Virus record (IMG/VR): IMGVR_UViG_3300028048_000003
DNA from: a virus
Length of the DNA stretch: 64,000 nucleotides
Reading direction: 5' to 3' (one strand)
In this document: positions 11,601 through 64,000 of the stretch, in pieces
Layout: the number at the start of each line of letters is the position of its first letter
Numbering within the stretch: the stretch's first letter is position 1
Position numbers and translations under genes: made by a program
Notes under the pieces: model-generated
Told to the model about the DNA's origin: nothing
What the model saw: the letters and a program-made list of their open reading frames with translations, nothing else
Databases searched by the model: none

Positions 11601-14600
11601 ATGTTAGCGTTTGTCGTAAACTCGGTAACATTAGGAGTTTCAGACATGAATTGGCCATACATCATATTAGGAGTGATATAACGGCCTGTTGTGTCTTGGA
11701 TTTCTTTCGACACCATTACCGCAAGTTTAGCAAGATACGGATTCGTGAAGGAACTGTAATCATACCCACCAGCATTGAGCCTAGAACCATCTGTCATACG
11801 ATGTTCATCGTTTCGAGAATAATCCCTAGAATACTTCGTGCTGTTGTACTTCTTGTCAAATTCCTCGATGTAGTCAGGGAGAACCTTGTCTAATTGCTCA
11901 TCGGAGAGGAAATTGCCATAGAGTTTCTTCCAAATCTCACCCTCAGATAACCCCTGTGAAGCAAGATTACCAAACTTTTCGAGGAGTTTATACAGAGAAT
12001 CAAATGGGTCAGAACCACCTGTCATAAACAAATCGCTGATACCAGAGAAGTTTATATTCTTAGCGTCCTTGCCATAGAGCATATTGAGAAGACTGAACAA
12101 GGAAGACTCTTTCACGCCGTACTTGGCAAAGTCACCGCGGGACATCATATCTTTAGCCGTAGCGATAGCCTGTTGCTGTTCGTCAGAGTAGTTTATGTAC
12201 TCTTTCGGTTCTTTCTTGTTATGGCCATGATTATGCTTTTGCTTGTGATTACCAAAATCGACGGAATCTTTGCCCTCGTTGTTGCGTCCCCTTGTCGGGT
12301 CAACTTGCTCTTCTTTTGGACTCTTTGTGCCATTAGCTATCTGCTCTTCAATTTTTGTGAGTTCCGCTGTTTTAGCGTCATTCTCACTTATCTCTTGCTG
12401 GAGAGCTGTAACGATACCCTCTTGTTCTTCTATTTGTTCTGCGGTTCTCTCTTGTTGGAGAGATGAGATGTCACCGTTATTCCTTAACGCCGTATCCCAT
12501 GTAGTATAAGCATTTTTAGCGTATTGAACTAAAGCGTCCTTTGTACTATTTATAGACTCTACCCATGACTCTGGAAGAATCTTCTTCATCATAGGGCTGT
12601 TAGCAGCGTTGGCAAGGACAGTCATTCCCTCTGCCGCAGCGCCACATGCTGCAAATATCACAGCTCCAAATTTTTGGTAAATCAGTCCAAGTAGACTAAC
12701 CGACGAACCTTCTGCTTTCATGGCTTTAATTCGTCTCTGTGTAGCTTCGAGCATGGCGTTCTTAGCAGCATTTTCGGAAGCAATTTCACCCTTCATAGAT
12801 TCTATTTTTTGAAGCGCTTTAGCTCTATCGCTGTTAGACAGTTTCATAATCATAGAAAGGTTCATCTTACCATCTTTGAGGAATTGGTCAGAGTTGGTAT
12901 GAAGAATTTCTGCTATCTGGTCGCTGATTTGCCCTTGCTCTTGCTTGATTTCATTAATTCTTTGGACGGATTCTGCGTTTTCATCATTGGCAGCAGTAAG
13001 CTGTTCGAGTTCGTCTTCAAGTTCATTGTACTTAGTAGCAAGTTTCTCAGCCTGTTGTACGCTTTCGTCTACCTCATTGTAGGTGTCAGCCCATTGTTCA
13101 GCCTGTTCTTTAAGTGTAGCCGTCAGGTTTTCTTGCTCCTCTCGATACGCTTCATACTCTGCGGCTGCTTGACCAGCTTCTTCTGACGTTTCGAGGAGAT
13201 ATGTACCGATTAGTGTGAGAGCGGTAATTACTAAACCAATAGGCCCTCCAAAACTATCGAGGACAACGTTGAATATCTTCATAGCCGTGCTGGCTCTTCC
13301 AATACCAACAGCAGACATCCTAGCGGCATCACCAAGAGCAATTACTCTAGTCCGTGCGGTAGTCAGGTCAACTTTGTAGAGTTTTGCCATCCTATCCGCG
13401 ATTTGCATCTGCCTAGAGAAAGAGAGATTAGCTCTTCGAGCAAGTTCCGTAGAGTTCTTGAACTGCTTGTTGATTCTATTTGCCCTATTTAGTTCCGTTG
13501 CATACTGCTTAGTTTGACGAATCGAGGAAACAGTAGCAAGTGCGGCCACGTCCTTCTGAGTGCTCATAACAGGATTCAATTTACTCATAAGAGCAGCGTT
13601 GCGAGAAGCCTGATATTGAGCTTGGATATTGGCAATAGGATTGGAAATATTGATAGAGCTACCGCCGTTTCTCCATGTAGCACTAGCCTTACCTAAGTTT
13701 CGTGCGATTTGGTTGATTAGCGGTGGCAGGAGTTTATATGCGGCAACGACTGCAAGAATACCTTTAGCGTACTTATAGGCATTTGACTCACCAGAAGAAA
13801 GACCTTTAACAAGGTTATTGAGGATATTGAGAACCCATTTCAGGTCATTGAGCAGACCGTTATTGCCATTTGACATGAAGAGCTTTGCGATGTTCGCTTT
13901 CAGAGTTTCTACCTTGCGGGCAACCGTGTCCATCTGGAGTGCTAACTGTTGATTAGTAAACCCAGCTGCATTTTTCGTAAGCTCAATGGTACGCTTTAAC
14001 TCGTTGTAATTTTTCAAGAGAGCGATTGTCTTAGACGATTGCCACTTACCACCAGAGATAGCAAGCATAAAATCAGACAAGGACTTAGAATCAAGGTTTG
14101 TGTGTTGCAGTCCTTTGGAAATATCAAGAATCAAGTCTTCAACAGGACGTAACTCTTTCTTTCCGTTTGCGCCAATCTTATAAACCTCAATACCAAATTT
14201 TTGCATAGCCTTGACAGCCTTATCAGACTGAATTGAAGCAAACAAAGATTTCAGCATTGTACCGATTTCATTACCACTCTTAGCCGTTGTACGAACACCA
14301 GTTGCGATAAGTGCATTTAAGAAACCGAAGGAGACACCAGCAGCGTCCGCGGCGGCTCCTGATTGCTTAACACCTTCTGTCAAATCCTGTGCCGACGCAC
14401 CAGACGTATGAGCAAGTTTCGTCCACACATCGAGAATATGAGTAGAACGTGCCATCAAGAGGTTGCTGTCCTCTGTCTGCATGTTGAACTGGGAAAGTGC
14501 CGACTCAAGACCAAGTACAGCGTCCTTCATCTCAAAGTTATCTGTGGTAGCCATCTTAGCCGCTTGCGCCGTCAGGATTTCAGTATTCCTAGCACCTACG

Positions 14601-17539
14601 TCAGCGTCACCGCCACCTTGGCCATACAAACGACCAACAGACCTCGCCGCGTCAAGGACATTATCAGCAGACTGTCCGAATTGAGCACCGATAGAAACAA
14701 ACTTTGAGAACTCTCCGTTCATCGCCGCTTGTCCTTCTTCTACCTTCGGCAACACCTGTGCGATACCAGCCATAGCTAACTCGTACTTTGTTACGTCAGA
14801 AACCACATCGGACGGGAAACTGATAATATGGTTCTCGATAGAACTACCAATCGCCCAGTTAGCAGATTCTCTTGCTCGTCTGAGGATGTTCTCTACATTG
14901 AGCGCATGACGCGGGGACTTAGCGATTTCTTCGTTAAACCGTTCTGCCTGACGATTAAGAAGCCTGAGTTCTTGCCGTGCCTTTTCAAAACCAATCTTAT
15001 CGGCCGTGGAGTGTGTCTGTTGGAGTTGGAGATAAAGGTCTTGGGCGTTCTTACGCGCTTCGGAGAGCCGTCGGTTGAACGAATCGGAGATAGTGAGAGC
15101 TTCTTCCTTGTTCGCCTTGATAGGCTCTGGCTTTTTGACATTATCCCAACGTTTTACGCCCTTCAAAAGCGACTCGTCAATTCCATCAGTAGGATGACCG
15201 AGGTCTTTGAGTTTTTTTGCAATATCCTCGATACGGTGCTTTTCCGCAAGGTAGCCAGCCTGAGTATAAACGATTCCTTTTTCACCAGTATGGTCTGCGA
15301 TATTACGCTTTACCTTTTCAAGAGCTTCGAGCTGCTTGATGATATTAGCTTGTCTTGTAGCTTCTTCTGCGGCAGCTTCTTTAGCTTGCTTTTCTCGCTC
15401 TTTCTGTGCCTTTACTTCTTCCTCCATCTGGCTTTTAAGGAGTGAAGAGTATTTCTTAGCGGAGATTTCTCTTTGCTTGATTTGCTCATCGAAAAGGTTA
15501 GTGACCTTCATATCACTACGCGCTTTTTCAATGTCTTTCAAGCTCATTGGCTGATTCTGTACGTTCTTTACATAGTCAGCGTACCTACCCTCAGAGAACG
15601 GATTTTTTGTAGACAGGTCACCTTTTAGTTCAGACAGGACTTTGCGAAGTGCGATAATGCGTTGACGAGCTTGTTCCCACTTACGTTCATTGAGAATAGT
15701 ACCGTTGTCTCTGCTGTTCCATCCGCTGTTGACAAGTTTATCATGCTCTTTCTGAGCGGCTTCAAGTCGTTTTGCAGGTTCTTCGCCAAGTTTTTTGCTT
15801 ACAGACTGTTTGAGTTCCTCGAAATGCCTACGAAGGGTTTCAAGTGTTGTAAGGTACTTTCTAGCGTCCCTGTCAGCGCGGTTGATACCTTGAGCAAAAT
15901 CACCGTTGCCGAGCTGTTGAAGAAGTGCTTCCGCCTGAGTGATTCTAGCGAGGGCGCGTCCGTACTTGCCGAGGGATTCGTCCTGCTCTGCTCCCTTTTT
16001 CAAAAGTTGTACAAGGTCATTCTGTTGCTTAGAAACATCAACCTTTGTGTCGTTGGTTTTCTTCCCGCTTGCGTAAGCCTTGCGAAGTTCTTCCTCTTTA
16101 GCGCGGATTTGCGAATCGAGGGTCTTTACTTCTGGTTTCTCAGGGGCTTTCTTTTCTTTGGATGATTCTTTCTTCTCTGCTTCTGCCTGTGCCTTGCGTT
16201 CCGCTGCCTTTTCAACGACATCCTTACCGAATTTCTTGAGTGTATCACGAGCCGCGTTTACAACAGCAAATGCGTTGGCAATAGAGGAAAAGTCGATATG
16301 TGCCGCGTTCCACAGGTATTCATACATAGAGCGCGTATCGGCAGCAAGAGCATTGATAGCGGAAACAGGGAGAGACTTACCTACATTTTCCCATGCGCGA
16401 GAAAGGCGTTCTGTATAGTCCTTGATGTCCTCATTCGCATCCGTACTCTTGACAGGCGGTTTCTTTGCCTTGGGAGTAGTAGTTTCCTTGACGTTCAGTC
16501 TCGGCAGTTCGGGAATCTTGATGTTCTTGAAGCTCTCGTTAATCTCGCGTGCCAGCTTCTTCGTCGATTCGGCCATAGCGGCTGTCTTATCGTTGGCATT
16601 GACCAGACTTGAATTAACTTTTGTGTCAAGAACGTTAGCAATTTCCAGCCATTTCTTTTTGATACCGTCGAGAAGCCCAGTGGCTTCGGCATACTCATCC
16701 AGAATAGCCTTAACTGCCTTTTCGGAGAAACTATTATCTGTTGTAAGAGCTTCTTTAGCGTTCTTCTTTGCCGCCGCCTTTGCCTTTGCAGCTTCTTTTT
16801 CCTTTTCCGCTTCTCTTTTCGCTTGAGCCGCCTTTGCAGCAGAAAGAAGATTATACTCACTCCTAAGAGCGCGGATTTCCTCTCTCTGTCCTTCTACGGA
16901 GAGTTCTTTGGGAAGTCCCTTGACTTTATTAAGTCCTGAGATAAAGTTACCCAAATCCATCTTGACTAAATTATTGCCAGCGAGAGAATGTAAGTCTTTT
17001 TTGATATTAGCTAAATTTTTACTAACGATACCAGAATAAGTTCTTACATTGTCAGCGGCTTTCTTTAAGTCGATACCCTCAACAGATTTTGTCCTTATTT
17101 TCTCCGCTGCCGAAGCAATCTCATTGATAGCAGTTTTGATAGTCTTAGATTGTTTAAGGAACTTGTCAAGGGCATCATCATGTGCCTTTGCTGTCTCTTC
17201 TGCGGCTTTTTTTACGTCTTTTGAGGCATTGATTTGCTCTTTAGACGCATTGACACTCTCTTGCAGTTTCTTATTCACATCGCCAATCTCTTTAGTCATG
17301 GTCGTTAAACCAAGTGATTTAGAGATTTTTTCAAGGTTCTGTGCTAGTTTAAGGGCAGAGCCACCAGTCTCATTCAAGGACGAGATGATAGACTTTCTGT
17401 ATTCATCCTTGAAGTCGGTGAACTTAATGTCGTTGATGGAACTGAGCGCATCTTTTACTTTTTCGAGGTTAGTAAGAGACTTGCCAATTTCAACTTCCAA
17501 GTTATATGAGATTTTCGTAGACTTAGAATCGTCTGGCAT
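8663..17539 (-). CDS. tail tape measure protein (2,958 aa) with embedded CHAP/NlpC-P60-like domain
   Basis: Very large coiled-coil-rich ORF (long K/E/A/Q-rich stretches) directly downstream of the G/GT chaperone genes. Internal QCSSWVSYMM…WRGHVGIYDGNGGYIA motif: Cys codon 11254-11252, His codon 11104-11102. Hydrophobic Gly-rich C-terminal part. Confidence 0.9.
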   Translation of the reverse strand: MPDDSKSTKISYNLEVEIGKSLTNLEKVKDALSSINDIKFTDFKDEYRKSIISSLNETGGSALKLAQNLEKISKSLGLTTMTKEIGDVNKKLQESVNASKEQINASKDVKKAAEETAKAHDDALDKFLKQSKTIKTAINEIASAAEKIRTKSVEGIDLKKAADNVRTYSGIVSKNLANIKKDLHSLAGNNLVKMDLGNFISGLNKVKGLPKELSVEGQREEIRALRSEYNLLSAAKAAQAKREAEKEKEAAKAKAAAKKNAKEALTTDNSFSEKAVKAILDEYAEATGLLDGIKKKWLEIANVLDTKVNSSLVNANDKTAAMAESTKKLAREINESFKNIKIPELPRLNVKETTTPKAKKPPVKSTDANEDIKDYTERLSRAWENVGKSLPVSAINALAADTRSMYEYLWNAAHIDFSSIANAFAVVNAARDTLKKFGKDVVEKAAERKAQAEAEKKESSKEKKAPEKPEVKTLDSQIRAKEEELRKAYASGKKTNDTKVDVSKQQNDLVQLLKKGAEQDESLGKYGRALARITQAEALLQQLGNGDFAQGINRADRDARKYLTTLETLRRHFEELKQSVSKKLGEEPAKRLEAAQKEHDKLVNSGWNSRDNGTILNERKWEQARQRIIALRKVLSELKGDLSTKNPFSEGRYADYVKNVQNQPMSLKDIEKARSDMKVTNLFDEQIKQREISAKKYSSLLKSQMEEEVKAQKEREKQAKEAAAEEATRQANIIKQLEALEKVKRNIADHTGEKGIVYTQAGYLAEKHRIEDIAKKLKDLGHPTDGIDESLLKGVKRWDNVKKPEPIKANKEEALTISDSFNRRLSEARKNAQDLYLQLQQTHSTADKIGFEKARQELRLLNRQAERFNEEIAKSPRHALNVENILRRARESANWAIGSSIENHIISFPSDVVSDVTKYELAMAGIAQVLPKVEEGQAAMNGEFSKFVSIGAQFGQSADNVLDAARSVGRLYGQGGGDADVGARNTEILTAQAAKMATTDNFEMKDAVLGLESALSQFNMQTEDSNLLMARSTHILDVWTKLAHTSGASAQDLTEGVKQSGAAADAAGVSFGFLNALIATGVRTTAKSGNEIGTMLKSLFASIQSDKAVKAMQKFGIEVYKIGANGKKELRPVEDLILDISKGLQHTNLDSKSLSDFMLAISGGKWQSSKTIALLKNYNELKRTIELTKNAAGFTNQQLALQMDTVARKVETLKANIAKLFMSNGNNGLLNDLKWVLNILNNLVKGLSSGESNAYKYAKGILAVVAAYKLLPPLINQIARNLGKASATWRNGGSSINISNPIANIQAQYQASRNAALMSKLNPVMSTQKDVAALATVSSIRQTKQYATELNRANRINKQFKNSTELARRANLSFSRQMQIADRMAKLYKVDLTTARTRVIALGDAARMSAVGIGRASTAMKIFNVVLDSFGGPIGLVITALTLIGTYLLETSEEAGQAAAEYEAYREEQENLTATLKEQAEQWADTYNEVDESVQQAEKLATKYNELEDELEQLTAANDENAESVQRINEIKQEQGQISDQIAEILHTNSDQFLKDGKMNLSMIMKLSNSDRAKALQKIESMKGEIASENAAKNAMLEATQRRIKAMKAEGSSVSLLGLIYQKFGAVIFAACGAAAEGMTVLANAANSPMMKKILPESWVESINSTKDALVQYAKNAYTTWDTALRNNGDISSLQQERTAEQIEEQEGIVTALQQEISENDAKTAELTKIEEQIANGTKSPKEEQVDPTRGRNNEGKDSVDFGNHKQKHNHGHNKKEPKEYINYSDEQQQAIATAKDMMSRGDFAKYGVKESSLFSLLNMLYGKDAKNINFSGISDLFMTGGSDPFDSLYKLLEKFGNLASQGLSEGEIWKKLYGNFLSDEQLDKVLPDYIEEFDKKYNSTKYSRDYSRNDEHRMTDGSRLNAGGYDYSSFTNPYLAKLAVMVSKEIQDTTGRYITPNMMYGQFMSETPNVTEFTTNANIGGYMESFSDEADLIDKLAKTYIRGDAYNGMRYDDAKTATDWYNVGHANGWPDDEDGYKYSRSIDQYANESGWNTAAQTIGENIGEAMVKEADAHAGEQWRGIDAGFDDNSSWESQCSSWVSYMMNKHGITSVNSPNGDTLMGQAGSAYHAGEAPLNAGDIINWRGHVGIYDGNGGYIARNSRGGVHHGTMEEAQQYFGAVLGRVDIKELAKTNGVKYGSPSISSSESVDRWEKYRGENAFHRNGIEEAAYRYESDQKHYEREQKRLETEAKLSGYTAEIYKKIAANEEAKLKSTETTLSYWRAVQQNGEDFLKDYSDKFSGFKSFLSENNLSIEGIKTLPDSEIQEIAKKFDKEGKGDFTKAINSLIKSRSQLESLESNYAEDKAEHDRKVYGSMSPTERLDAQLESLSNAHEHKINGMTDSESYMENMRFYAQKLDILQKKYDWIHSQLSKAESSDYEKRSGWETERDAEQKRLDLLIEKRKTLTSEDKTLNAEIQKVSKHVDELTDRIDQNREHGSEATQQYKKDLAEVQKSIDDVKKSLNAVTDELADIIENGVHNMFSDVLLEGKSFKESWKSLWNDIAKLALRQILRVQMQKWGLKDILSGENITRRVQRRNFVHNVGRVGGFMSGWSGNVLDKIPSSRYGATNQFGGKADYNRAFQQLSQKLNLNTLAIRKGTTVANAVATVQKAATVATQSASIKNSLATGQQVLATNLSSNQMSLLNATNQRNTIAVQGNTNADISNTSATTANTTALQMQGATSSMGGAAGIGGSSSGGGMGWAGYAGIAISLFSMFRKHADGGLIKGFATGGDTTGLIRGAGTGTSDSILTYLANRGQFIRTSNGEYIIKKSTVDKVGVGFLDTLNANPEAIAGMKRYADGGNLGESYEPVMSPKTVENYRKFNRNNTVIKTSSNKRLEQLMQQQNDMLAAMGSKDNGSGNMVVLNTQADSASVMRAIQKNPRAFQRIMGNQQRHGFR

Positions 17540-24137: not shown

Positions 24138-25440
24138 CAGTCTTCTTTTTCACATCCTCTTTTTGGTCTTTGCCTAAACCATTAAATCCACCAGTCTGTA
24201 CAGCATATTTTTTATTCAATGCCGATTTCATCTCTGCCTGAGTCATGTCATTATACGGACTATCAATATGCGGCATACCAATAGCATTTCTGTACTCTGC
24301 AAAGGTAATACCGTTATTGTTCCATTGTTCCGTGAGCATCGTCTGCTTCTGTTGCTTCTGCGTCAGCGTATCTTCAAAGACAAACTCGAATTTCAAATAG
24401 TCGCCCATGCCTAAACGACCAATGATTTTCTTGTTAATCTCATCGGCAAGCAGTAAGCAATACGGACGAATCGCCTCATTGAGCATAGACTCATTTTGCT
24501 CTTCCACAGTAGAACGGTCTGTATTACTGCCCTGACCAAGTTTCTTAGGGTCAATGCCAAAGGCGAGAGCAATCTCTGTGATTAACTCTTTTTGCCATTC
24601 AAGGAACAGACCTTCATCACCGTCAGCACCAAGGTGAAGTGCTTGAGCACCCTTCGTACCGCCGATAATTGCCTGTTCACCACGTCCCTGTACCTCTTCA
24701 CGCCAATACTTTCTGAACGCATCGAGGTCTGCCTGTGAGACGTTCTCCCCAAGGTCAAGAGCGTATTTAGGAATAGCATTGTCGGTTTGCGTAGAAGCGT
24801 ATTCTTGAGCACTAGTCAACGCATTGATATGCTGAAAAGCCGCTTCAATAGGAGACAATCCGTATGGCGTATCGACGGTCTTATTATGCTGCAAATAAAG
24901 AACATCCTTGTCATACAGATACGTCCTGTTCGCTCCTACGACCTGACAAAATCGGTAAAACTCTGGATTTGTGAAAAACCCTGTGACATATTCAAGAGCG
25001 AAACCGTTAATCGGATATAACTTCATTGGTCTGCGAATGTCTCCAGTGAAGACAATCTCTGCCGCTCCATTATCTCCAATCAAGGTTTCATTGATAACCT
25101 GTCCCCAAAAAGACTCGTAAGTGTCTGTCTCATTAGGATGCAGGATAATATTCTCCAATGCTTTGATAGCAGCACCATAGGTACGTTTATCTCCTGCATT
25201 GGTAGGGACAATCCTCCAATTCTGCGCTAATACTCCGTCCCGAATAAGGGAAATAGCACGGTGAGGAATTGCCATTCGAGAAAAGTTCCGCAAGCTCCGT
25301 TCGTTCACTTTGATAAGCGAATCTTTTGGAGTGAAGTTAGGCAAAGAAATAATCGTCGTGGCAGACTGCCTTTGAAGGTGTCCGTCAGACGGTGTTTTAA
25401 TGCCAAGGTGGAAAACTTTCCCGAAAGCTCTTATCTCCAT
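24085..25440 (-). CDS. portal protein
   Basis: ~450 aa between TerL and the protease. Start moved to ATG 25440 (MEIRAFG…), which overlaps the TerL stop (ATGGAGATAA). Confidence 0.85.
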   Translation of the reverse strand: MEIRAFGKVFHLGIKTPSDGHLQRQSATTIISLPNFTPKDSLIKVNERSLRNFSRMAIPHRAISLIRDGVLAQNWRIVPTNAGDKRTYGAAIKALENIILHPNETDTYESFWGQVINETLIGDNGAAEIVFTGDIRRPMKLYPINGFALEYVTGFFTNPEFYRFCQVVGANRTYLYDKDVLYLQHNKTVDTPYGLSPIEAAFQHINALTSAQEYASTQTDNAIPKYALDLGENVSQADLDAFRKYWREEVQGRGEQAIIGGTKGAQALHLGADGDEGLFLEWQKELITEIALAFGIDPKKLGQGSNTDRSTVEEQNESMLNEAIRPYCLLLADEINKKIIGRLGMGDYLKFEFVFEDTLTQKQQKQTMLTEQWNNNGITFAEYRNAIGMPHIDSPYNDMTQAEMKSALNKKYAVQTGGFNGLGKDQKEDVKKKTDGEKKRAEEDRGKERNA

Positions 25441-26981
25441 TTTGTGAAAATCCCTCCCATCGGTGTTGGTTTCATGCGCGAGGATAGTCCTCCAAAAACA
25501 AGGCGGTGAGACATGTCTGGGAAAGCAGCAGAACAAATCATGTTAAGTGCATCCATTCCATCATCACTACCCTTTGGAAATCGTAGAAATTCGTTGACAA
25601 GTACAGTCTGGTCTTTACGGAACTTGATGTATTTGTTCTTGATTCTCGGAATCATACCGCGAAGACGTAACTGCTTTTCAACCTTGCTGTTGTACTCATT
25701 AATTGGAATCTGAATACCAGCGTTCAGACCTCTCTTAGCGACTTCATCCTTGAACATCGCTTGGAACTGAACTGTCTCAATCGTCACCGAAACAAGGTGG
25801 CTCTGATACTTCATAGAACCAGCAATAATGAGGTCAATGAGCCTGTCTGGTTTGAATCTTCCCATAGTCACATCAAGTACATAAAGGAATCCGTTCTCAT
25901 CCTTACCAGCGAATATGATTGCTGCTCGGTCTGATTTTGCCTTACCAAGAGAGGGGTCAACAGCGCCATAAACTTCCTTGATTTCTGGAAGTTCATAGTA
26001 GTAATCAAACCACTCAGGAAGGAACTCCGCGTTAGCAGGGTCAATCGGTTCATTCTGATACTCACTTGCAAAAGAGCTACTATCGGAAACCCTAAGTTCC
26101 ATCATGTTCTCGTAATAGTCTGGAGAACTCTCAGGCCAAAGAGATTCGACACCTTTAAGCATCTCGTCTCTGTGCTTCTGATAGAATTGATAGGCATCTT
26201 CGCCAGCTTTAGGGTTGTGCTCGTCCGTGAGGATTTGTTCCCAATCATCCCACAACGGAGAATCCGAAAAGTGCTGTACCGCTTGGTATCTCTTTCTGTC
26301 CCACATTGAGAACGCAGGAGCAGTTAAGAGCTTTTGCAGTAATGACTCATAGTGAAGTACCGTCCCAATGTAGATATAATCGCTTGTCGGCGTACCTACT
26401 GGAATAAGGGCTTTCATAAACCAGTTGAACAACTTTTTTCGTTGCGCTTCTGTCTCTACGTTTTCATCGTTCTCCAAATCATCGATGATGATTAACTCAG
26501 GGCGAATCGAGCCGAACTTATTACCGCGAAGTTTCTGTCCAGCACCACGGCCATAAACCTGTACGCGGTTAGAAGTAATAATCTTATCTTGCGCCCATTT
26601 CTCTTCCGAAACGAGGTCACCAAAGTCGGTTTTGATAAGGTCATTTTCTTCAAGTTCTGTCTTTATCGCCGAAATGAAAGAACGCGCTTGGTCTAACGTA
26701 TCAGAAACGAGCAAAATGTTCCTTTTGTACTTGTAAACTATGCACCAGATAATCAGCAAAAACGAGATAACCTGCGACTTACCATGTCCGCGCGGAGCGG
26801 CTCGAACATAGAAGTTTTTTCGTCTTTTTCTCCTCAGAATCATGTCCTCTGCTGACTTGAAAATTTCCTTGTGTAAAGGGGAAAATGCACAAGAAAATAC
26901 CGAGGGGAAATAGGTAAGAGCGAACTTTTCAAGGGAAGTAGCACAGTCTTTCATGCGCTGTCCCGCGTCCTCTCTATCCAT
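25431..26981 (-). CDS. terL: terminase large subunit
   Basis: 516 aa. Walker A APRGHGKS, Walker B LIIIDDLE, and a C-terminal RNaseH-like nuclease part (AVDPSLGKAKSDRAAIIFAG…). Confidence 0.9.
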   Translation of the reverse strand: MDREDAGQRMKDCATSLEKFALTYFPSVFSCAFSPLHKEIFKSAEDMILRRKRRKNFYVRAAPRGHGKSQVISFLLIIWCIVYKYKRNILLVSDTLDQARSFISAIKTELEENDLIKTDFGDLVSEEKWAQDKIITSNRVQVYGRGAGQKLRGNKFGSIRPELIIIDDLENDENVETEAQRKKLFNWFMKALIPVGTPTSDYIYIGTVLHYESLLQKLLTAPAFSMWDRKRYQAVQHFSDSPLWDDWEQILTDEHNPKAGEDAYQFYQKHRDEMLKGVESLWPESSPDYYENMMELRVSDSSSFASEYQNEPIDPANAEFLPEWFDYYYELPEIKEVYGAVDPSLGKAKSDRAAIIFAGKDENGFLYVLDVTMGRFKPDRLIDLIIAGSMKYQSHLVSVTIETVQFQAMFKDEVAKRGLNAGIQIPINEYNSKVEKQLRLRGMIPRIKNKYIKFRKDQTVLVNEFLRFPKGSDDGMDALNMICSAAFPDMSHRLVFGGLSSRMKPTPMGGIFTKWR

Positions 26982-40740: not shown

Positions 40741-40982
40741 GCTTGCTCCCTCTTTAACGAATCGGAGGTAAAGTAGCAGCCCCTTATGAAACCGTTCCCA
40801 AGTTTTCTCTTTCCCTTGAACCGATACCTGTCTTTGAAATCTGAGGACTCACTCTTTATGTAGCGCACATCAGCAAAATACCGCTTGAGATTTTCTTCTG
40901 CCGCCTTTCTCTCATCCTCTACAACGACAGAATACCTTTCTACCTCATGCGGCATACGCACTACGAAAAAGTGCAGCCCCAT
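40737..40982 (-). CDS. hypothetical protein
   Basis: 81 aa. TGATG overlap with the nrdG stop and ATGA overlap with the downstream gene. Confidence 0.5.
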   Translation of the reverse strand: MGLHFFVVRMPHEVERYSVVVEDERKAAEENLKRYFADVRYIKSESSDFKDRYRFKGKRKLGNGFIRGCYFTSDSLKREQA

Positions 40983-41500
40983 CAGCGGATTTTCACTACG
41001 TCCTCGTCAATCTCGTTACCGCTATCATCAAAATCAACGGCCTTATAGCTGCCGTCAGGAAGATGTTTCCAGATTTTCTGGTTGCGACTTCCACGGAACG
41101 GCAGTCTTTCTTTCTGCTTGCAGTCAAATGCACCGTCAATCACATAATCAAACGGAGAAAAGATGTTAAGTTTACGCTTTTTGAATAACTCATCAATGGT
41201 GTGGCCTGTATAGATTGTAGTTTGAAGACCTTTCGACTTTGCCCATGCCGCAATCTCCTTGACCTCATCCATCTGCATAGAGCTTTCCCCGCCGCTGAAC
41301 GTGACACCACTCACGGGAGGAACATAGCTCTCAATCTTACCCTCAATCTCTTCTACGGACATCTCTACGCCACCGTCTGTTGCCCATGTAGAAGGATTCT
41401 GACACTCTTTACAATGGATGTCACACCCCTGCGCGAACAGGACGTAATTGATACCCTTCCCATCCGCGAGAGACGTGGCATTTACGCCAGCAACTTTCAA
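40982..41500 (-). CDS. nrdG: anaerobic ribonucleotide reductase activating protein (radical SAM)
   Basis: 172 aa. …GINYVLFAQGCDIHCKECQNPSTW… carries the CxxxCxxC radical-SAM cluster motif. Directly downstream of nrdD. Confidence 0.85.
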   Translation of the reverse strand: MKVAGVNATSLADGKGINYVLFAQGCDIHCKECQNPSTWATDGGVEMSVEEIEGKIESYVPPVSGVTFSGGESSMQMDEVKEIAAWAKSKGLQTTIYTGHTIDELFKKRKLNIFSPFDYVIDGAFDCKQKERLPFRGSRNQKIWKHLPDGSYKAVDFDDSGNEIDEDVVKIR

Positions 41501-41555: not shown

Positions 41556-42518
41556 TTATCCAATCGCTCCACCTGCATGAGAAACACGGTCAGCCATTTC
41601 AGCTTTCTTGCCGTCGTTTGCTCTCTCATACTCTGTAAGATACCCTGTAATAATTTCTGTCACCTTGATATTCTCGCTCCCGCACTTCGGACAAGCACCA
41701 TCGAAACTACCTTGATAGCCACAGTCCTTACAGAAGCATTGTACCCAGTTCAGACCACCATAGACGATACCAGACTTATCCATATACTGAATGAGCTTTA
41801 GCACGCCCTCTGGATTGAACTTAGGCGTATCTCCTGCTTCAATGTAAAAGATAGCTCCCGCGTTGCAATAGAGATGATAAGGTGCTTCGGTATCAATCTT
41901 CTTTTTCATGTCACACTTGAACGATACAGGGAGATGAAAACTATTGGTAAGGTACTCTTTGTCTGTGACGTTCGGAATTGTACCAAAGGTCTTCTTAGTC
42001 TTCTTCATCAGCGTGTAACATGCGCTCTCGCACGGACTGGCGAATAAGCTCACATTCAAATGAGTATCTTTCTTTGCCTTATCGACGCGCTTTCTCATCA
42101 ATTTTATGATTTCAAGACCAAGTTCCTGAGACTTCCCCGATTCGCCGTGATGTTTGCCAGTAAGAACAATCAAGCACTCAGCAAGCCCGATGAATCCCAT
42201 AGAAAGAGAGCCATTTTTCACCATAGGTTCAATCGTGTCATCCTCATCAAGCTCTGCTCCATCCTGATACCAATCGGCAACAAAAGGAATATCGCGCTTT
42301 TTCAGATTCTTGATAACGTCGTATCTCTCAAGTAGTTCACCAACTGCATCATCCATTGTCTCGTAGAGAATATCCCAGAACTCAGGCAGCGGGTCAGATG
42401 GGTTCTTCTCTTTTGCTTCGAGGGCAAGGTACGGAAGATTGATTGTATTGAACGCGAGATTACCACGCGCATCTGGGTTTTCATCACCGTTGACATTTCC
42501 TCGAACAGCAGTCCTACA
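41556..42518 (-). CDS. nrdD: anaerobic ribonucleoside-triphosphate reductase, exon 3
   Basis: Begins CRTAVRGNVNGDENPDARGNLAFNTINLPYLA…. Ends with the Zn-ribbon CKDCGYQGSFDGACPKCGS and the glycyl-radical-type motif …VTEIITGYL…. Confidence 0.85.
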   Translation of the reverse strand, partial: CRTAVRGNVNGDENPDARGNLAFNTINLPYLALEAKEKNPSDPLPEFWDILYETMDDAVGELLERYDVIKNLKKRDIPFVADWYQDGAELDEDDTIEPMVKNGSLSMGFIGLAECLIVLTGKHHGESGKSQELGLEIIKLMRKRVDKAKKDTHLNVSLFASPCESACYTLMKKTKKTFGTIPNVTDKEYLTNSFHLPVSFKCDMKKKIDTEAPYHLYCNAGAIFYIEAGDTPKFNPEGVLKLIQYMDKSGIVYGGLNWVQCFCKDCGYQGSFDGACPKCGSENIKVTEIITGYLTEYERANDGKKAEMADRVSHAGGAIG

Positions 42519-42759
42519 CATATAATCGACTATCACTAGCCGTACTGACTATATCATCTACTATTTCTAGCAGCCCTCCGCTTCGGAACAGTACCTATCT
42601 CTGTCCCTACATGGTTACACTCATCACCATTAGTCGATACACTTTACTGTTTCCAGTCTTAGCACGGACTCATCTCATAAAGACCTATCCGTTAGCACGA
42701 AAAATCGCACACCCTCTAGGTGAGGTTCAAAGGGTTTTACATGGGCTGAGGATTCGCTT
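42519..42759 (-). ncRNA. group I self-splicing intron 2 (241 nt, no ORF)
   Basis: Separates …EYIGTMG from CRTAV…. The 5' exon ends in U (ggU 42760). The intron ends in G (42519). Exon AUGGGU (42765-42760) pairs with intron GCCCAU (42746-42741), with a U:G wobble at the splice site. Stops occur in the exon frame. Confidence 0.75.
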
Positions 42760-43266
42760 ACCCATAGTTCCAATATACTCAAGCGGCATACCGTCATACG
42801 CTTTAGAGTCGCAGAACACAAATCGCGGTTGAATACGCTTACCAACACACTCGATTGCAAGCTGCGTAATGTCAAAGTTCGGCTCACCTTCATGGAGGTT
42901 GATTCCATCTTTTACGCGATAACAAAGGTTCGGAAAGATAGGATTCTCTCCCTTGCCAAGACCAGCAATGTAAGCCTTGAACAAGTTTTTAGAAATCATC
43001 CTCGCCCACTTTGATGTATCTGTGCCAAAGTTTACGCTGGAGAAGGTGACTTGAGCGCCGCTACGTGACCTCATCATATTGCAATTATAAACAAACTGCT
43101 CCATCGCCTGATATACGGCTTTATCGGTACGTTCAAGAGCAAGTTCTGCCGTTCTTTCTGTATTTACATACCCATCACCATATACCTCCTCGATTTGCTT
43201 CTTCTGGTACTCGTACTCACGCTGAACATACGGCGCAAGGTCAGTATCAAAGTTCAAAAATCCCTG
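42760..43266 (-). CDS. nrdD: anaerobic ribonucleoside-triphosphate reductase, exon 2
   Basis: QGFLNFDTDLAPYVQREYEYQ…PLEYIGTMG. 169 codons, in frame with both flanking exons after intron removal. Confidence 0.85.
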
Positions 43267-43698
43267 CTGACACATTCGAGGTTTCCCTCAGTCGTGCCTA
43301 GACTATCTCTTCACTCAAGCGGCTGACTCACCGCTATCATCGTGCCTTGCACTACGGAATACGGAATTGCACCGTAAACCTCTTAGACTGCGTTAGTCAA
43401 TTTAGTCGTTACACCTTGCTTGCTCTTTTTCTCTTTGATTTCACCTGATTTAGCCGCAAAATATCCGTCGTACTTTGTCGGATAAAATTCAATCCCGTTG
43501 AATAGCGTTTTATCACCTCCTTTTATTTTTAGAATAAAGAGCAAGCCTTGGCACGGTATTACCTGCTATCTTACGAAAGACCGTAGGTTCTCTTACGGAG
43601 CGTATTCGAGCGCAAGCCTTATTTAACTCCTACCGTTAGCCATGAAAACATGACACCCTAGATTTCTAGGTTCACAAGGTTACGCGGCCAGTTTATCG
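43267..43698 (-). ncRNA. group I self-splicing intron 1 (432 nt)
   Basis: Separates …QNSMFGG from QGFLNFD…. The 5' exon ends in U (ggU 43699). The intron ends in G (43267). Exon GCGGU (43703-43699) pairs with intron GCCGC (43688-43684), with U:G at the splice site. Shares a GCTAACGG(A)TAGG segment with intron 2 (43640-43633 vs 42696-42689). Confidence 0.75.
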
Positions 43699-44307
43699 AC
43701 CGCCGAACATGCTGTTCTGGCTGCTCTGCAAGATGATACATGCAAGAGCCGTAGCACTTCCAATGCGTTTCGGAGTACGAATACTTCCAACGCCATTTGA
43801 GAAGCCATTTTTCAGCATCTTCCCAAGAGGATTGAAAAAGCAATTAAACGTAATTCCGTAATATCCCAAATCGTGAATATAAACTCTACCTTTTCGGTGA
43901 TTTTCTGCGTACTTCTTACTCATCCGCGACAAATTAAACCGCTTTGTAGCCGCTTCTGCTACGGAATACATCTTACTTGCCGCTGAACCGTTAGCCGCAT
44001 TAGCATTGTCGGTATTGATTGTAGAGTACAGACGCGCAATTTCTTTATTCAAATCGCTGCCATACTCTCGGTAATCTGTGCGTTTCTGCCGATAGAGAAT
44101 ATACGCCTTGGCAACGTCAGGGTATTTCTCCATCAACTTCTTTTCAACAGCATCGTGAATCTCATCCACGGTTACGTCCCTATCGAACGAGATTTCATTA
44201 GCGATTTCCTTGCCAATCTCTGCACTCTTAGCGGCCTTTGTCACCGCATTTTCAATCTTTTCCTTCTTGAACGGCTCTTTCCGTCCGTCATGCTTCGTTA
44301 CTGTCAT
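43699..44307 (-). CDS. nrdD: anaerobic ribonucleoside-triphosphate reductase, exon 1 (ATP-cone + N-terminal part)
   Basis: ATG 44307 after GGAGGA. MTVTKHDGRKEPFKKEKIENAVTKA…AKAYILYRQKR is an ATP-cone pattern. Followed by …RVYIHDLGYYG…ILQSSQNSMFGG. Confidence 0.85.
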
Positions 44308-44473
44308 TTTTCTCCTCCAAAACCTTATACATACCTCCTGCTCGATAAGCAACTACTACGTTACCCTCGGCATCCTTAAACAAGTACACATCGCCACAAG
44401 CGCACCTAGCGTACCCATTCTCCATATACTTATCCCACAGCACATCCCAGCACCTCATGCACTTGACTTTCAT
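44288..44473 (-). CDS. small Cys-rich (zinc-ribbon-like) protein
   Basis: 61 aa. MKVKCMRCWDVLWDKYMENGYARCACGD…. Confidence 0.45.
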   Translation of the reverse strand: MKVKCMRCWDVLWDKYMENGYARCACGDVYLFKDAEGNVVVAYRAGGMYKVLEEKNDSNEA

Positions 44474-47858: not shown

Positions 47859-47949
47859 TGGTGCGAGAGACGGGATTCGAACCCGTATGATATTTCTATC
47901 GAGGGTTTTTAAGACCCTTGCGCCTACCACATGATTACGCCACTCTCGC
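47859..47949 (-). tRNA. trnL: tRNA-Leu (anticodon UAA), long variable arm, encoded CCA
   Basis: Hand-folded: GCGAGAG acceptor stem; AGGGT-CTTAAAA-ACCCT anticodon arm; GATA-GAAA-TATC variable arm; ACGGG-TTCGAAT-CCCGT T-arm; CTCTCGC-A-CCA. Confidence 0.85.
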
Positions 47950-48292
47950 ATAATAATTGGTTTTTTCGTCTTTTCCTTGACGACCTAGCTTTTCAGATGT
48001 GTTTTAGTGCTGGCCAGTCACTTCAAGCATAGTCCCATTCACATCAGGGGCTTTAGGATTCGGTGCGGCGCTCCTGCCACCTTTCAGACAGGTCGCAATC
48101 CGCAGAGATGGTTCCAACATTTTTTAAGCGCATTTTCCATTCGGCGCTGCTGTTTTACCCACCTACCAGCAAGGGAAGCCTGAGCGTCGTGAATCGCGGC
48201 CTTGTCAGCCAAAACCAGTATGCTCCTAAAACATCAGGGACATCTGGAGTTCACGGTGGCTCACGCAAAAAAACTCGACCAATCATTCATAA

Positions 48293-48368
48293 TGGAGCTA
48301 CCGAGAGGAATCGAACCTCCAACCTACGCATTACAAGTGCGTTGCTCTACCAGTTGAGCTACGATAGC
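48293..48368 (-). tRNA. trnT: tRNA-Thr (anticodon UGU), encoded CCA
   Basis: GCTATCG…ACGCA-CTTGTAA-TGCGT…GGAGG-TTCGATT-CCTCT-CGGTAGC-T-CCA. Confidence 0.85.
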
Positions 48369-48527
48369 ATGATAATGTACCCAGATGTCAAAAGAATCTT
48401 TTTTAGTTGGAAAGGAGGTATTCTTACTGGGTACATCTTTATAAAATCACCCTTTTTTATAAATTGCTCAGGTCAACCTTTATAAAATATCGCTTTTTTA
48501 TAAAAACAGGTGATTAAATAAACATAT

Positions 48528-48602
48528 TGGCAGGGGTTACTGGACTCGAACCAGTGATGCGGGAGTCAAAGTCCCGTGCCTTAACCACTTGGCAAAACCC
48601 CT
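48528..48602 (-). tRNA. trnQ: tRNA-Gln (anticodon UUG), encoded CCA
   Basis: AGGGGTT…CGGGA-CTTTGAC-TCCCG…ACTGG-TTCGAGT-CCAGT-AACCCCT-G-CCA. Confidence 0.85.
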
Positions 48603-48604
48603 AT

Positions 48605-48680
<76 letters not shown>

Positions 48681-62491: not shown

Positions 62492-64000
62492 TTAAATAAT
62501 ACTCCTAAATTTGTTGCCAACAACAGACATCCGATAGATTTTGTTCGTATCGATTGGTACATAAACACTATTAAACATTACCATATCATGCTGAGTTCCA
62601 TCGGGGCATTCCAGAGTGAAGAACATCATAGGCTTACCGTTTTTCTGTTTCCAATGTTTGATACGACGCACAACGCCAAGGACGATGCGGACGTTATTAT
62701 CCTGCTCATCGGGGACTTGGTATTTACTTGTATCATAGTCAGCGAAGATATTCTCAAAGGTCATGCCGAGCACTTCAAGCTCCCCTGCTCTGTTGTCAAA
62801 GTCGGTGTCTGTGGCTTCAACCTCTTTGATTTTCTGCTCAATATCCCAATACTTAGAGCTGTAATCAAGGTATTTCTTATGAGCATCAGACTTTTTCTTC
62901 GTTCCGTCCTTCGCCGTCTCGTAGATAGCCTTATTCTTCTCGATTCGTTCCTTGGTCGTTTCCAGTTGCTTGTTGAGCTTATCGAGGACACCGCTCTGAT
63001 AAAGAACCTGTAAAAGCTCGCTCCTATCTCCTAAGAAGTCCAGCGCACCAGCCTTGATAAGATTCTCCACTTTGTCCTTCGGAAGTTTCTTGTAGCTCTG
63101 ATAGTCAAGGGGAACAGGAATATCGCCGATACCAGAAATGTAGTTGATAGCCATTCTGATAGCCTTTTTGCCGTCATCTTTGACAACCACTTGCCAATCA
63201 CATGTAGTAGAACGCGCATCGGGAGGAAGAATCTCTACGCCATGCCTACGAGCGTCGTTGATATACACCAGCAAATCCTCCTGCTTGTCTCCGTTGTACG
63301 CATTGAGATAGGCGCAAAGGAACTCAGCAGGATAGTGTGCCTTGAGATATGCCGTCTGATAGCATGTGTAACCGTATGCGGCGCTGTGCGACTTATTGAA
63401 CTGATACGCGGCAGCGTTAGAGAGCCATTCTGCTAGTTTTTGAGCGACCTCAGAGCTTACACCACGCTTCTCACAATCACTCACAAACTGAGGAACAAGT
63501 TTAGCCATCTCCTCTGGAATCTTTCTACCGATAGCACGACGGAACACATCTGCCTGTCCTAAATCATATCCTGCCATAGCCTGTACAATCTGCATCGCCT
63601 GTTCCTGATAGAGCATGACACCATAAGTATCTTTCAAGCAAGTCTCTACCCAAGGATGGATATAAGTAAACGGCTTTCCCTTTCTCCGATTAGTAAACTC
63701 ATCAACCATACCACTCTGAATAGTGCTAGGACGATACAACGCCACCAGCGGCACAATATCGAACACACTTTGAGGTTTAATATCTTGAATGATTTTTCTC
63801 ATACCACCAGATTCAATCTGAAAGCATCCGAGAACATCGTCATGGTTCAGCATATCGAAGGTAGCTTCATCCGTATCAGGAAGGTTGTCTACGTCCACAG
63901 ACGCGCCGTAGCGTGCCTCTACCATCTTACAGGTATTATCTATCACGTCGAGGGTTTTGATGCCCAGAACGTCCTCTTTGAGCAGCCCCATAGCTTCGAG
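62492..64000 (-). CDS. dnaE: DNA polymerase III alpha subunit (DnaE-type), C-terminal ~500 codons; gene continues past the right edge
   Basis: …GIKTLDVIDNTC…GCFQIESGGMRKIIQDIKP…YRPSTIQSGMVDEF…MLYQEQAMQIV…FNKSHSAAYGYTCYQTAYLKAHYPAEF… are classic Pol III alpha motifs. The frame stays open upstream of the track's internal Met to nt 64000. Confidence 0.85.
   Translation of the reverse strand, partial: LEAMGLLKEDVLGIKTLDVIDNTCKMVEARYGASVDVDNLPDTDEATFDMLNHDDVLGCFQIESGGMRKIIQDIKPQSVFDIVPLVALYRPSTIQSGMVDEFTNRRKGKPFTYIHPWVETCLKDTYGVMLYQEQAMQIVQAMAGYDLGQADVFRRAIGRKIPEEMAKLVPQFVSDCEKRGVSSEVAQKLAEWLSNAAAYQFNKSHSAAYGYTCYQTAYLKAHYPAEFLCAYLNAYNGDKQEDLLVYINDARRHGVEILPPDARSTTCDWQVVVKDDGKKAIRMAINYISGIGDIPVPLDYQSYKKLPKDKVENLIKAGALDFLGDRSELLQVLYQSGVLDKLNKQLETTKERIEKNKAIYETAKDGTKKKSDAHKKYLDYSSKYWDIEQKIKEVEATDTDFDNRAGELEVLGMTFENIFADYDTSKYQVPDEQDNNVRIVLGVVRRIKHWKQKNGKPMMFFTLECPDGTQHDMVMFNSVYVPIDTNKIYRMSVVGNKFRSII

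Follow-up and report, generated by a model that had tools for sequence, protein, structure and literature searches.

A class III ribonucleotide reductase gene in three pieces

The stretch of viral DNA considered here, 64,000 nucleotides (nt) from IMG/VR virus record IMGVR_UViG_3300028048_000003 (called the window from here on), carries on its minus strand an nrdD gene, which encodes a class III ribonucleotide reductase (RNR) and is interrupted by two inserts that are very probably group I introns. The listing of open reading frames (ORFs) confirms three minus-strand ORFs in the window, at 43693-44352, 42727-43275 and 41556-42536. They match positions 1-105, 106-247 and 264-562 of the Pfam NRDD profile, in that order, and the first also contains an ATP-cone. 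The three ORFs are consecutive pieces of one nrdD gene, as an earlier reading of the letters of this DNA (the original prediction) had claimed. Joining 44307..43699, 43266..42760 and 42518..41556 gives 2079 nt, or 692 codons plus a stop; the excision of 43698-43267 and 42759-42519, proposed at the same time, thus restores the frame to the base.

Exon 1 (43699..44307; 203 codons) holds the ATP-cone and the beginning of the NRDD domain according to Pfam, and its 3' end reads ATG TTC GGC GGT. Its start, MTVTKHDG, agrees with that of a homologous protein, P0084, and a Shine-Dalgarno (SD) sequence, GGAGGAG, lies upstream. Exon 2 (42760..43266; 169 codons), recognized by its part of the NRDD profile and by continuous alignment, runs from QGFLNFDTDL to EYIGTMG. 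Exon 3 (41556..42518; 320 codons and the stop) starts with CRTAVRGNV and contains a Zn-ribbon (CxxC...CxxC) and the glycyl-radical motif ITGYL. Directly downstream, on the same strand, is nrdG (40982..41500), which encodes the radical-SAM activase (Pfam Fer4_12 and Radical_SAM) and whose protein product is found, identical, in many contigs of sister phages. The ATP-cone, the NRDD barrel with its MGCR cysteine loop, the Zn-ribbon, the glycyl-radical motif and the neighboring NrdG together identify a class III enzyme.

The conceptually spliced protein behaves as a single NrdD from end to end. Residues 2-689 align with the NrdD of PDB entry 8p23 (E=1.9e-134), free of gaps at both junctions, and full-length alignments were also obtained with PDB 9d3x and 1h78. 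Many uninterrupted metagenomic NrdDs of about 700 amino acids (aa) are 64-71% identical to it at 100% coverage, and they are continuous across both sites (SMFGGQGFLNFDTDL and IGTMGCRTAVR). The closest NrdDs of phages in GenBank are less than 40% identical, and a megablast search of GenBank phages with the locus gave no match. Gene callers have split nrdD in public contigs into pieces of 204, 182 and 321 aa, the very misannotation that had been foreseen.

Boundaries of the two inserts

The inserts, called introns 1 and 2 here, occupy 43267..43698 (432 nt) and 42519..42759 (241 nt) on the minus strand. Both are phase-0 insertions at motifs that are highly conserved, intron 1 between residues 203 and 204 (FGG|QG, the bar marking the insertion) and intron 2 between the codons for Gly372 and Cys373 (MG|CRT). 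The conserved cysteine of MGCR that immediately follows intron 2 is the established active-site radical cysteine of NrdD. Stop codons in the reading frame of the exon appear one codon into intron 1 and ten codons into intron 2, for which reason inteins were rejected as an explanation of the inserts.

The edges of intron 1 are defined to the base by an allele without it. P0084, 96% identical in protein sequence, is encoded by contig L001. This contig and the window are colinear, with 95-98% identity in DNA, except that L001 lacks exactly 43698..43267, all 432 nt. At the junction, L001 has GGCGGA|CAGGGA where the window has GGCGGT, the intron and then CAGGGA. Since the exon of L001 ends in A rather than U, the U required for a U·G wobble is specific to the allele bearing the intron. 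Mismatches between the exons of L001 and the window are concentrated within 42 nt upstream of the insertion site, a cluster that looks like a co-conversion tract. The FGG|QG site of intron 1 is previously unsampled. In L008, the nrdD alignment ends at residue 202, and no intron could be confirmed there.

Intron 2 is present in L001, and its first 154 nt (window 42606-42759, L001:2402-2555) are unchanged. Over the same comparison, exon 2 differs at 11 of 507 positions, so that the intron is here more conserved than the exon. A close allele lacking intron 2 was sought among the sister phages; the search turned up only uninterrupted nrdD bodies of 65-67% DNA identity, and at that distance they do not fix the edges of intron 2 to the base.

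Both 5' exons end in T in the DNA (43699 and 42760), and both inserts end in G (43267 and 42519), their 3' ends reading ...GUCAG in intron 1 and ...UAUG in intron 2. In intron 1, an internal guide, GCCGC (43684..43688, minus strand), can form helix P1 with the exon end GCGGU (43703-43699), all five positions pairing. In intron 2, the guide GCCCAU (42741..42746, minus strand) can pair likewise with AUGGGU (42765-42760), six pairs out of six. In each case the terminal pair is U·G, and P1 of intron 2 recurs in homologous introns at the MG|C site. The exon and intron ends named in the original prediction are confirmed, and its guide pairings are fully complementary as given. There is also potential for P10, in intron 1 between CUG (43691-43689) and the first bases of exon 2, CAG, and in intron 2 as UG(U)AGG/CCUCA, both of these pairings being short and judged by eye from the sequence. 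The predicted ligated junctions are ...TTCGGCGGT|CAGGGATTT... and ...ACTATGGGT|TGTAGGACT....

A group I core in both inserts

Viral contigs were scanned with a motif common to both inserts, the R element (AARGTGTAWCGACTAA), giving 120 loci, in many of which nhmmer recognized a homologue of intron 1 or of intron 2. The idea that matches to the R element are mostly due to chance was discarded, since covariance searches place real introns in most of the loci. A scan of viral contigs with another shared motif, TTTTCRT..GCTAACGG..TAGG, found no match.

A covariance model (R1) was made from an alignment of 19 related introns in other viral contigs, with no sequence from the window. When the full 64 kb was searched with R1, exactly two matches came back, both full length (all 216 positions): one at intron 2 (42537-42740, minus strand; 162.8 bits, E=6.8e-45), where no non-canonical pair was flagged, and one at intron 1 (43291-43685, minus strand; 97.6 bits, E=2.3e-26). 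The intron of phage T4 nrdD, known as sunY, also matches R1 over its full length (68.9 bits, E=1.7e-19). More than 150 related introns were recovered from the fetched viral contigs by this family-specific approach.

The fold is borne out by covariation. RNAalifold, run on a plain MAFFT alignment of the 19 introns, gave a fold with P3, P4, P5, P6, P6a, P7.2, P8 and, after P3, two further hairpins; 33 of its 42 pairs have compensatory changes. In a larger set of 99 distinct family sequences (alignment A3), to which P7 and P7.1 were added, 91.9% of cells are paired; shuffling brings this figure down to 64% and sliding to 35-39%. Compensatory changes are seen in 47 of the 52 pairs, including P7.1 and two pairs of P7. 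P7 itself is 97.7% paired and nearly invariant across the family.

Both introns share one order of elements: P1, GUAAAA, P3, AA, P3.1, GU, P3.2, UAA, P4, P5, P4', P6/P6a, J6/7 and P7, followed by P7.1, P7.2, P3', P8, J8/7, P7', P9 with a GNRA loop, and the terminal G. Every helix, P1 included, is canonical in both (some coordinates in intron 1 were corrected by hand), and the core, with its P3/P7 pseudoknot, could be modeled in each. The core-like segment common to both inserts that the original prediction had pointed out, GCTAACGG, is real and invariant across the intron family; it consists of the end of P3.2, the junction UAA and the 5' strand of P4. The 3' half of the core of intron 2 (42547..42635, minus strand) comprises P7 (GACUA 42635-42631 / UAGUC 42551-42547), P7.1 (AUGGU/ACCAU), P7.2 (GGGACAG/CUGUUCC), the 3' strand of P3, P8 and J8/7 (AUGAUA). 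In intron 1, after manual correction, P7.1 is GACU/AGUC and P7.2 is UACGG/CCGUA; P7.2 covaries in the family. Both introns have P7.1 and P7.2 between the 5' strand of P7 and the 3' strand of P3, the arrangement that characterizes subgroup IA2, and because of this and their sequence likeness to sunY, they would belong in or next to IA2 (IA2-like). IA2 is the dominant subtype in viruses (PMC11835236).

Two extra hairpins stand between P3 and P4. In intron 2, they are P3.1 (42725-42713) and P3.2 (42710-42695), together covering 42695..42725, and in intron 1 the equivalents are at 43670-43657 and 43654-43639, all on the minus strand. RNAalifold found compensatory changes in support of both, and in the family count they are 98% and 97% paired. 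A search of the literature, with the classic literature outside its scope, found no description of this two-hairpin block; P3.1 is named among the optional pairings of group I introns (PMC3873408). The two introns differ in their periphery. Intron 1 has an extended P5 and a P6a (43418..43546, minus strand) whose 11-bp stem, GCUUGCUCUUU / AAAGAGCAAGC, is perfect (11/11 pairs) and encloses a loop of 107 nt.

The independent covariance model, the covariation, P1, the terminal G (omega-G) and an insertion site shared with related introns combine to uphold the group I assignment, and we put the probability that both inserts are group I introns, homologous to the self-splicing T4 sunY intron, at roughly 90%.

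Points against a pair of group I introns

Several observations weigh against this assignment. The original prediction had proposed Infernal with the Rfam group I model as a check, and this check failed: a scan of the whole window at Rfam gathering thresholds reported four tRNAs and no intron. In E-value mode, RF00028 (Intron_gpI) gives intron 2 only 19.2 bits (E=0.044), where the gathering score is 50, and gives no match at all to intron 1. T4 sunY passes RF00028 at 105 bits, while family members with the P3.1/P3.2 block fail, and the two extra hairpins between P3 and P4 are probably the reason why Rfam misses them. The A3 alignment of 99 sequences was fitted to the model, so its paired percentages are inflated, and the 33 of 42 pairs from the MAFFT alignment are the more conservative figure. 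P5 of intron 2 is minimal (4 bp with a triloop), and its J4/5 and J5/4 are atypical of the family consensus; P5 of T4 sunY is equally short. Finally, the removal of the two inserts by splicing is inferred from sequence.

There is, besides, an in-frame ATG at or near the 3' end of each insert, at 43275 (43273-43275) and at 42521 (42519-42521, the last three bases of the intron), and a GAGG is found about 10 nt before the first of these. GenBank starts ORF102 of Lactococcus phage 949 at the equivalent intron-terminal ATG (L137:2803-2808). Perhaps, then, the inserts stay in the RNA, and an active NrdD is assembled from three fragments, each translated on its own. Split RNRs have a precedent, in that the NrdA of Aeromonas phage Aeh1 is reportedly split by a homing endonuclease gene. 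But a mere spacer would not have kept a complete, covarying ribozyme fold homologous to an intron proven to splice itself. The start of fragment 3 has no SD sequence, and the GAGG ahead of fragment 2 is tied up in the hairpin of P9. The breaks fall inside conserved core motifs, one of them directly before the cysteine of MGCR, and promoters are not in excess (5 sites against 5.9 expected). More generally, a scan for promoters and terminators found nothing above chance, the terminator-like matches being hairpins of the ribozymes themselves. The terminal UG is a trait of the family and yields AUG, UUG or ACG at the MG|C site, so the in-frame AUG at the end of the intron is probably a by-product of the conserved UG and of insertion in phase 0. 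It could still allow some translation of a C-terminal fragment from unspliced RNA. On balance, an enzyme made in three parts is very improbable.

If the two inserts are group I introns, nrdD and nrdG would probably be transcribed on one pre-mRNA, and each intron would fold into a P3-P9 core with the P3/P7 pseudoknot and a peripheral domain of P7.1 and P7.2. Free guanosine bound in P7 would attack after the terminal U of the exon, held by P1 in the U·G wobble. Next, the intron's own terminal G would occupy the G site, and the freed 3'-OH of the exon would attack the 3' splice site aligned by P10, producing the ligated junctions GGU|CAG (FGG-QG) and GGU|UGU (MG-CR).

The stump of a homing endonuclease gene in intron 1

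Both inserts had been described as free of endonuclease and ORF. For intron 2 the description holds: apart from read-through from the exon, it has no internal ORF of at least 30 codons. It does not hold for intron 1, where the loop of P6a contains an ORF of 53 codons (43383..43544, minus strand) that is evidently the stump of a gene for an HNH homing endonuclease (NUMOD4 + HNH_3). By itself, this stump has no Pfam or other significant match, and when it was compared, by tblastn and with a small hidden Markov model, with endonuclease ORFs from longer introns of the family, the result was not significant (0.4 bits). Its identity comes instead from a metagenome contig, L133 (1-547, minus strand), in which both exon 1 (at 92% aa identity) and the intron (nt 1-276, at 96% identity) recur. 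In L133, the remnant frame extends into ...HRLIAETFLPN..VNHINGIKDDNRVENLEWAT before the ORF is cut off by the end of the contig. That ORF matches HNH_3 in Pfam at 42.7 bits (cut-off 24.8) and NUMOD4 weakly, at 19.6 bits. In both copies, an SD sequence, GGAGG, precedes ACG and not ATG at the beginning of the endonuclease ORF. A 19-mer specific to intron 1 matched nothing among the viral contigs and four loci in the metagenome scan, L133 being the one true homologue among the four. Longer members of the family elsewhere carry HNH or GIY-YIG-like ORFs.

Since the intron of L133 runs on into HNH_3, intron 1 of the window is a deletion derivative of a mobile intron encoding an HNH enzyme. The window retains only about 40 N-terminal codons of the endonuclease, i.e., a stump and no intact HNH endonuclease. 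Going by this comparison, intron 1 is a decayed mobile intron, and because it is a deletion derivative and intron 2 has no ORF, both probably now persist as passengers, either immobile or mobilized in trans.

The decay might conceivably have gone further, leaving one or both introns unable to splice (through the deletion in P6a of intron 1 or the minimal P5 of intron 2) and nrdD a pseudogene. The deletion is clear, the R1 score of intron 1 (97.6 bits) falls below that of most family members, and its P7.1 is atypical. Moreover, sister phages have a different, uninterrupted nrdD cassette. What was deleted, however, is loop sequence only, with the P6a stem left perfect. After conceptual splicing all 692 codons are open and all catalytic motifs intact, and the downstream nrdG is intact and conserved. 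Over 3.5 kb, copies of the allele from independent samples are 100% identical, and intron 2 matches L001 throughout its first 154 nt even as exon 2 has changed at 11 of its 507 positions. A dying gene is thus most unlikely, if a shade less so than a split enzyme, and two introns within a working nrdD is the reading we retain.

Allelic states of the locus and the MG|C site

The 3.5-kb nrdD region of the window is found, 100% identical, in two independent assemblies (L124 and L127). Contigs that encode an identical NrdG present three states of nrdD: the twin-intron gene, an uninterrupted gene of 687 aa, and a gene of 1044 aa with a LAGLIDADG intein. The intein (L125:2815-5949, L128, L130 and L132) is inserted exactly at MG|C, the codon boundary that intron 2 also occupies. 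In the sister states without introns (L125, L126, L128-L132), the body of nrdD is only 65-67% identical in DNA to that of the window, while the flanks are 97-99.7% identical, from which it follows that the body of nrdD has been exchanged as a cassette. The breakpoints are near 44069, just after the start of the ATP-cone, and 41547, at the nrdD stop. A search of the uninterrupted and intein-bearing sister alleles with R1 gave no match.

At the MG|C site, with an identical ATGGGT|TGTAGR, at least seven divergent phage nrdD genes (L107/L108/L012/L065, L002, L064, L015, L086 and L070) have introns related to intron 2, as does Lactococcus phage 949. The NrdDs of these contigs are about 25-45% identical to that of the window, and those of the L107 group about 33%, yet intron 2 is 72.6% identical to the intron of L107. 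The MG|C boundary of nrdD may be a hot spot for homing. Elsewhere in nrdD, the fetched viral contigs have introns of the family at about residues 147, 266-272 (the T4 site), 315, 392, 535, 567 and 598. Individual nrdD genes (L015, L086, L076, L102, L002 and L012/L065) have up to three or more family introns, at about eight further sites.

A broader proposal is that P3.1 and P3.2 mark out a separate sub-class of IA2 introns, abundant in uncultured phages, largely those of the gut, and systematically missed at the Rfam threshold, and that MG|C is a homing hot spot contested, within one phage species, by this intron family and LAGLIDADG inteins. It also has the whole body of nrdD apparently swapped as a cassette between genomes that are otherwise 97-99% identical. 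The proposal as a whole we consider tentative, with the odds somewhat against it.

The locus amounts to a compact natural series: nrdD uninterrupted, with intron 2 only, with both introns, with intron 1 carrying an HNH ORF, and with an intein. Such a series should be useful for studying how selfish elements are gained, decay and compete with one another at an essential active-site motif. There is also a practical lesson for annotation. At its curated threshold, Rfam gives no warning that an nrdD gene is split, and the same failure is found in GenBank for phage 949; a family-specific covariance model remedies the omission. The finding leaves what is known of group I introns and RNRs unchanged.

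Genomic context

The window also contains a very long gene for a tape measure protein (8663-17539, minus strand; 2958 codons), indicative of a long-tailed, siphovirus-like phage. The phage is probably temperate, since a matching public contig also carries an integrase gene of phage type downstream of nrdG. A cluster of four tRNAs, one with a long variable arm, lies upstream of the nrdD region (47862-48680, minus strand). Two other ORFs match only part of their family profiles. The ORF at 62492-63991 (minus strand) corresponds only to the C-terminal part of a phage DNA polymerase family (profile positions 591-1049 of 1190); it begins at the edge of the window, after an in-frame stop, and the polymerase may also be split, its upstream part lying beyond the window. 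The ORF of the large terminase (25431-26981, minus strand) matches only positions 256-708 of the 760 in PHROG 38.

Comparison with known systems

The intron of T4 nrdD (sunY) belongs to subgroup IA2, encodes I-TevII and has been shown experimentally to splice itself. The introns of the window share with it the host gene, the layout of the core, GUAAAA after P1, the P7 strands CGACUA/UAGUC, a P7.1 loop GAUGA(A/G)UGUA, P7.2, J8/7 (AGAUAU) and P9 with a GNRA loop; the 3' half of the core of intron 2 is nearly identical to it in layout. They differ in position, since sunY is inserted at about aligned residues 262-271 and not at 203/204 or 372/373, and in the P3.1/P3.2 block, which sunY lacks (34 positions of the model are deleted in its R1 alignment). 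In sunY, furthermore, a GIY-YIG ORF lies downstream of the core, and the Rfam model recognizes it at 105 bits, where both introns of the window fail.

Lactococcus phage 949 offers a closer parallel. Between its annotated ORF101 and ORF102, at PMG|CRS, the site of intron 2, is an intron of the same family with P3.1 and P3.2 (R1 127.7 bits, E=5e-36). It is about 300 nt long, has no ORF and, like intron 2, ends in AUG. The published description of a "non-coding intron" in phage 949 nrdD (PMC3653736) agrees with the R1 match. The differences are that its NrdD is only about 25-30% identical, that it has a single intron, with no counterpart of intron 1 seen, and that an intein occurs later in the gene (PMC3653736).

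In the gut "Jug" phages, which are jumbo phages, nrdD is fragmented by compact group I introns (about 206 nt) and inteins, and metatranscriptome reads support the splicing of some compact group I introns in genes of gut phages, nrdD among them (PMC12880540). The likeness to the window, gut phages with nrdD in several pieces, is one of published description, and the probably temperate, siphovirus-like genome of the window (a contig of about 74 kb) is unlike a jumbo phage. In the RNR genes nrdE of Twort and bnrdE and bnrdF of SPβ, there are two group I introns and/or inteins per gene (PMC3653736). These, too, compared by description, have multiple group I introns at conserved catalytic motifs, with or without HNH ORFs, and inteins in the same genes, but the enzymes are of class Ib rather than class III.

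That phage RNR genes can contain group I introns, even several in one gene, and that these may or may not have endonuclease ORFs, is established (PMC3653736, PMC2988022). The original prediction had called a twin-intron nrdD notable, which overstates its novelty: nrdD genes with one or several compact introns have been published (PMC3653736; PMC12880540), that of phage 949 with an intron of the same type at the same site. The nrdD of the window is a real but ordinary case of a well-known phage phenomenon, to which it adds some modest extras: a P3.1/P3.2 variant that escapes Rfam, the unsampled FGG|QG site, and the allelic series.

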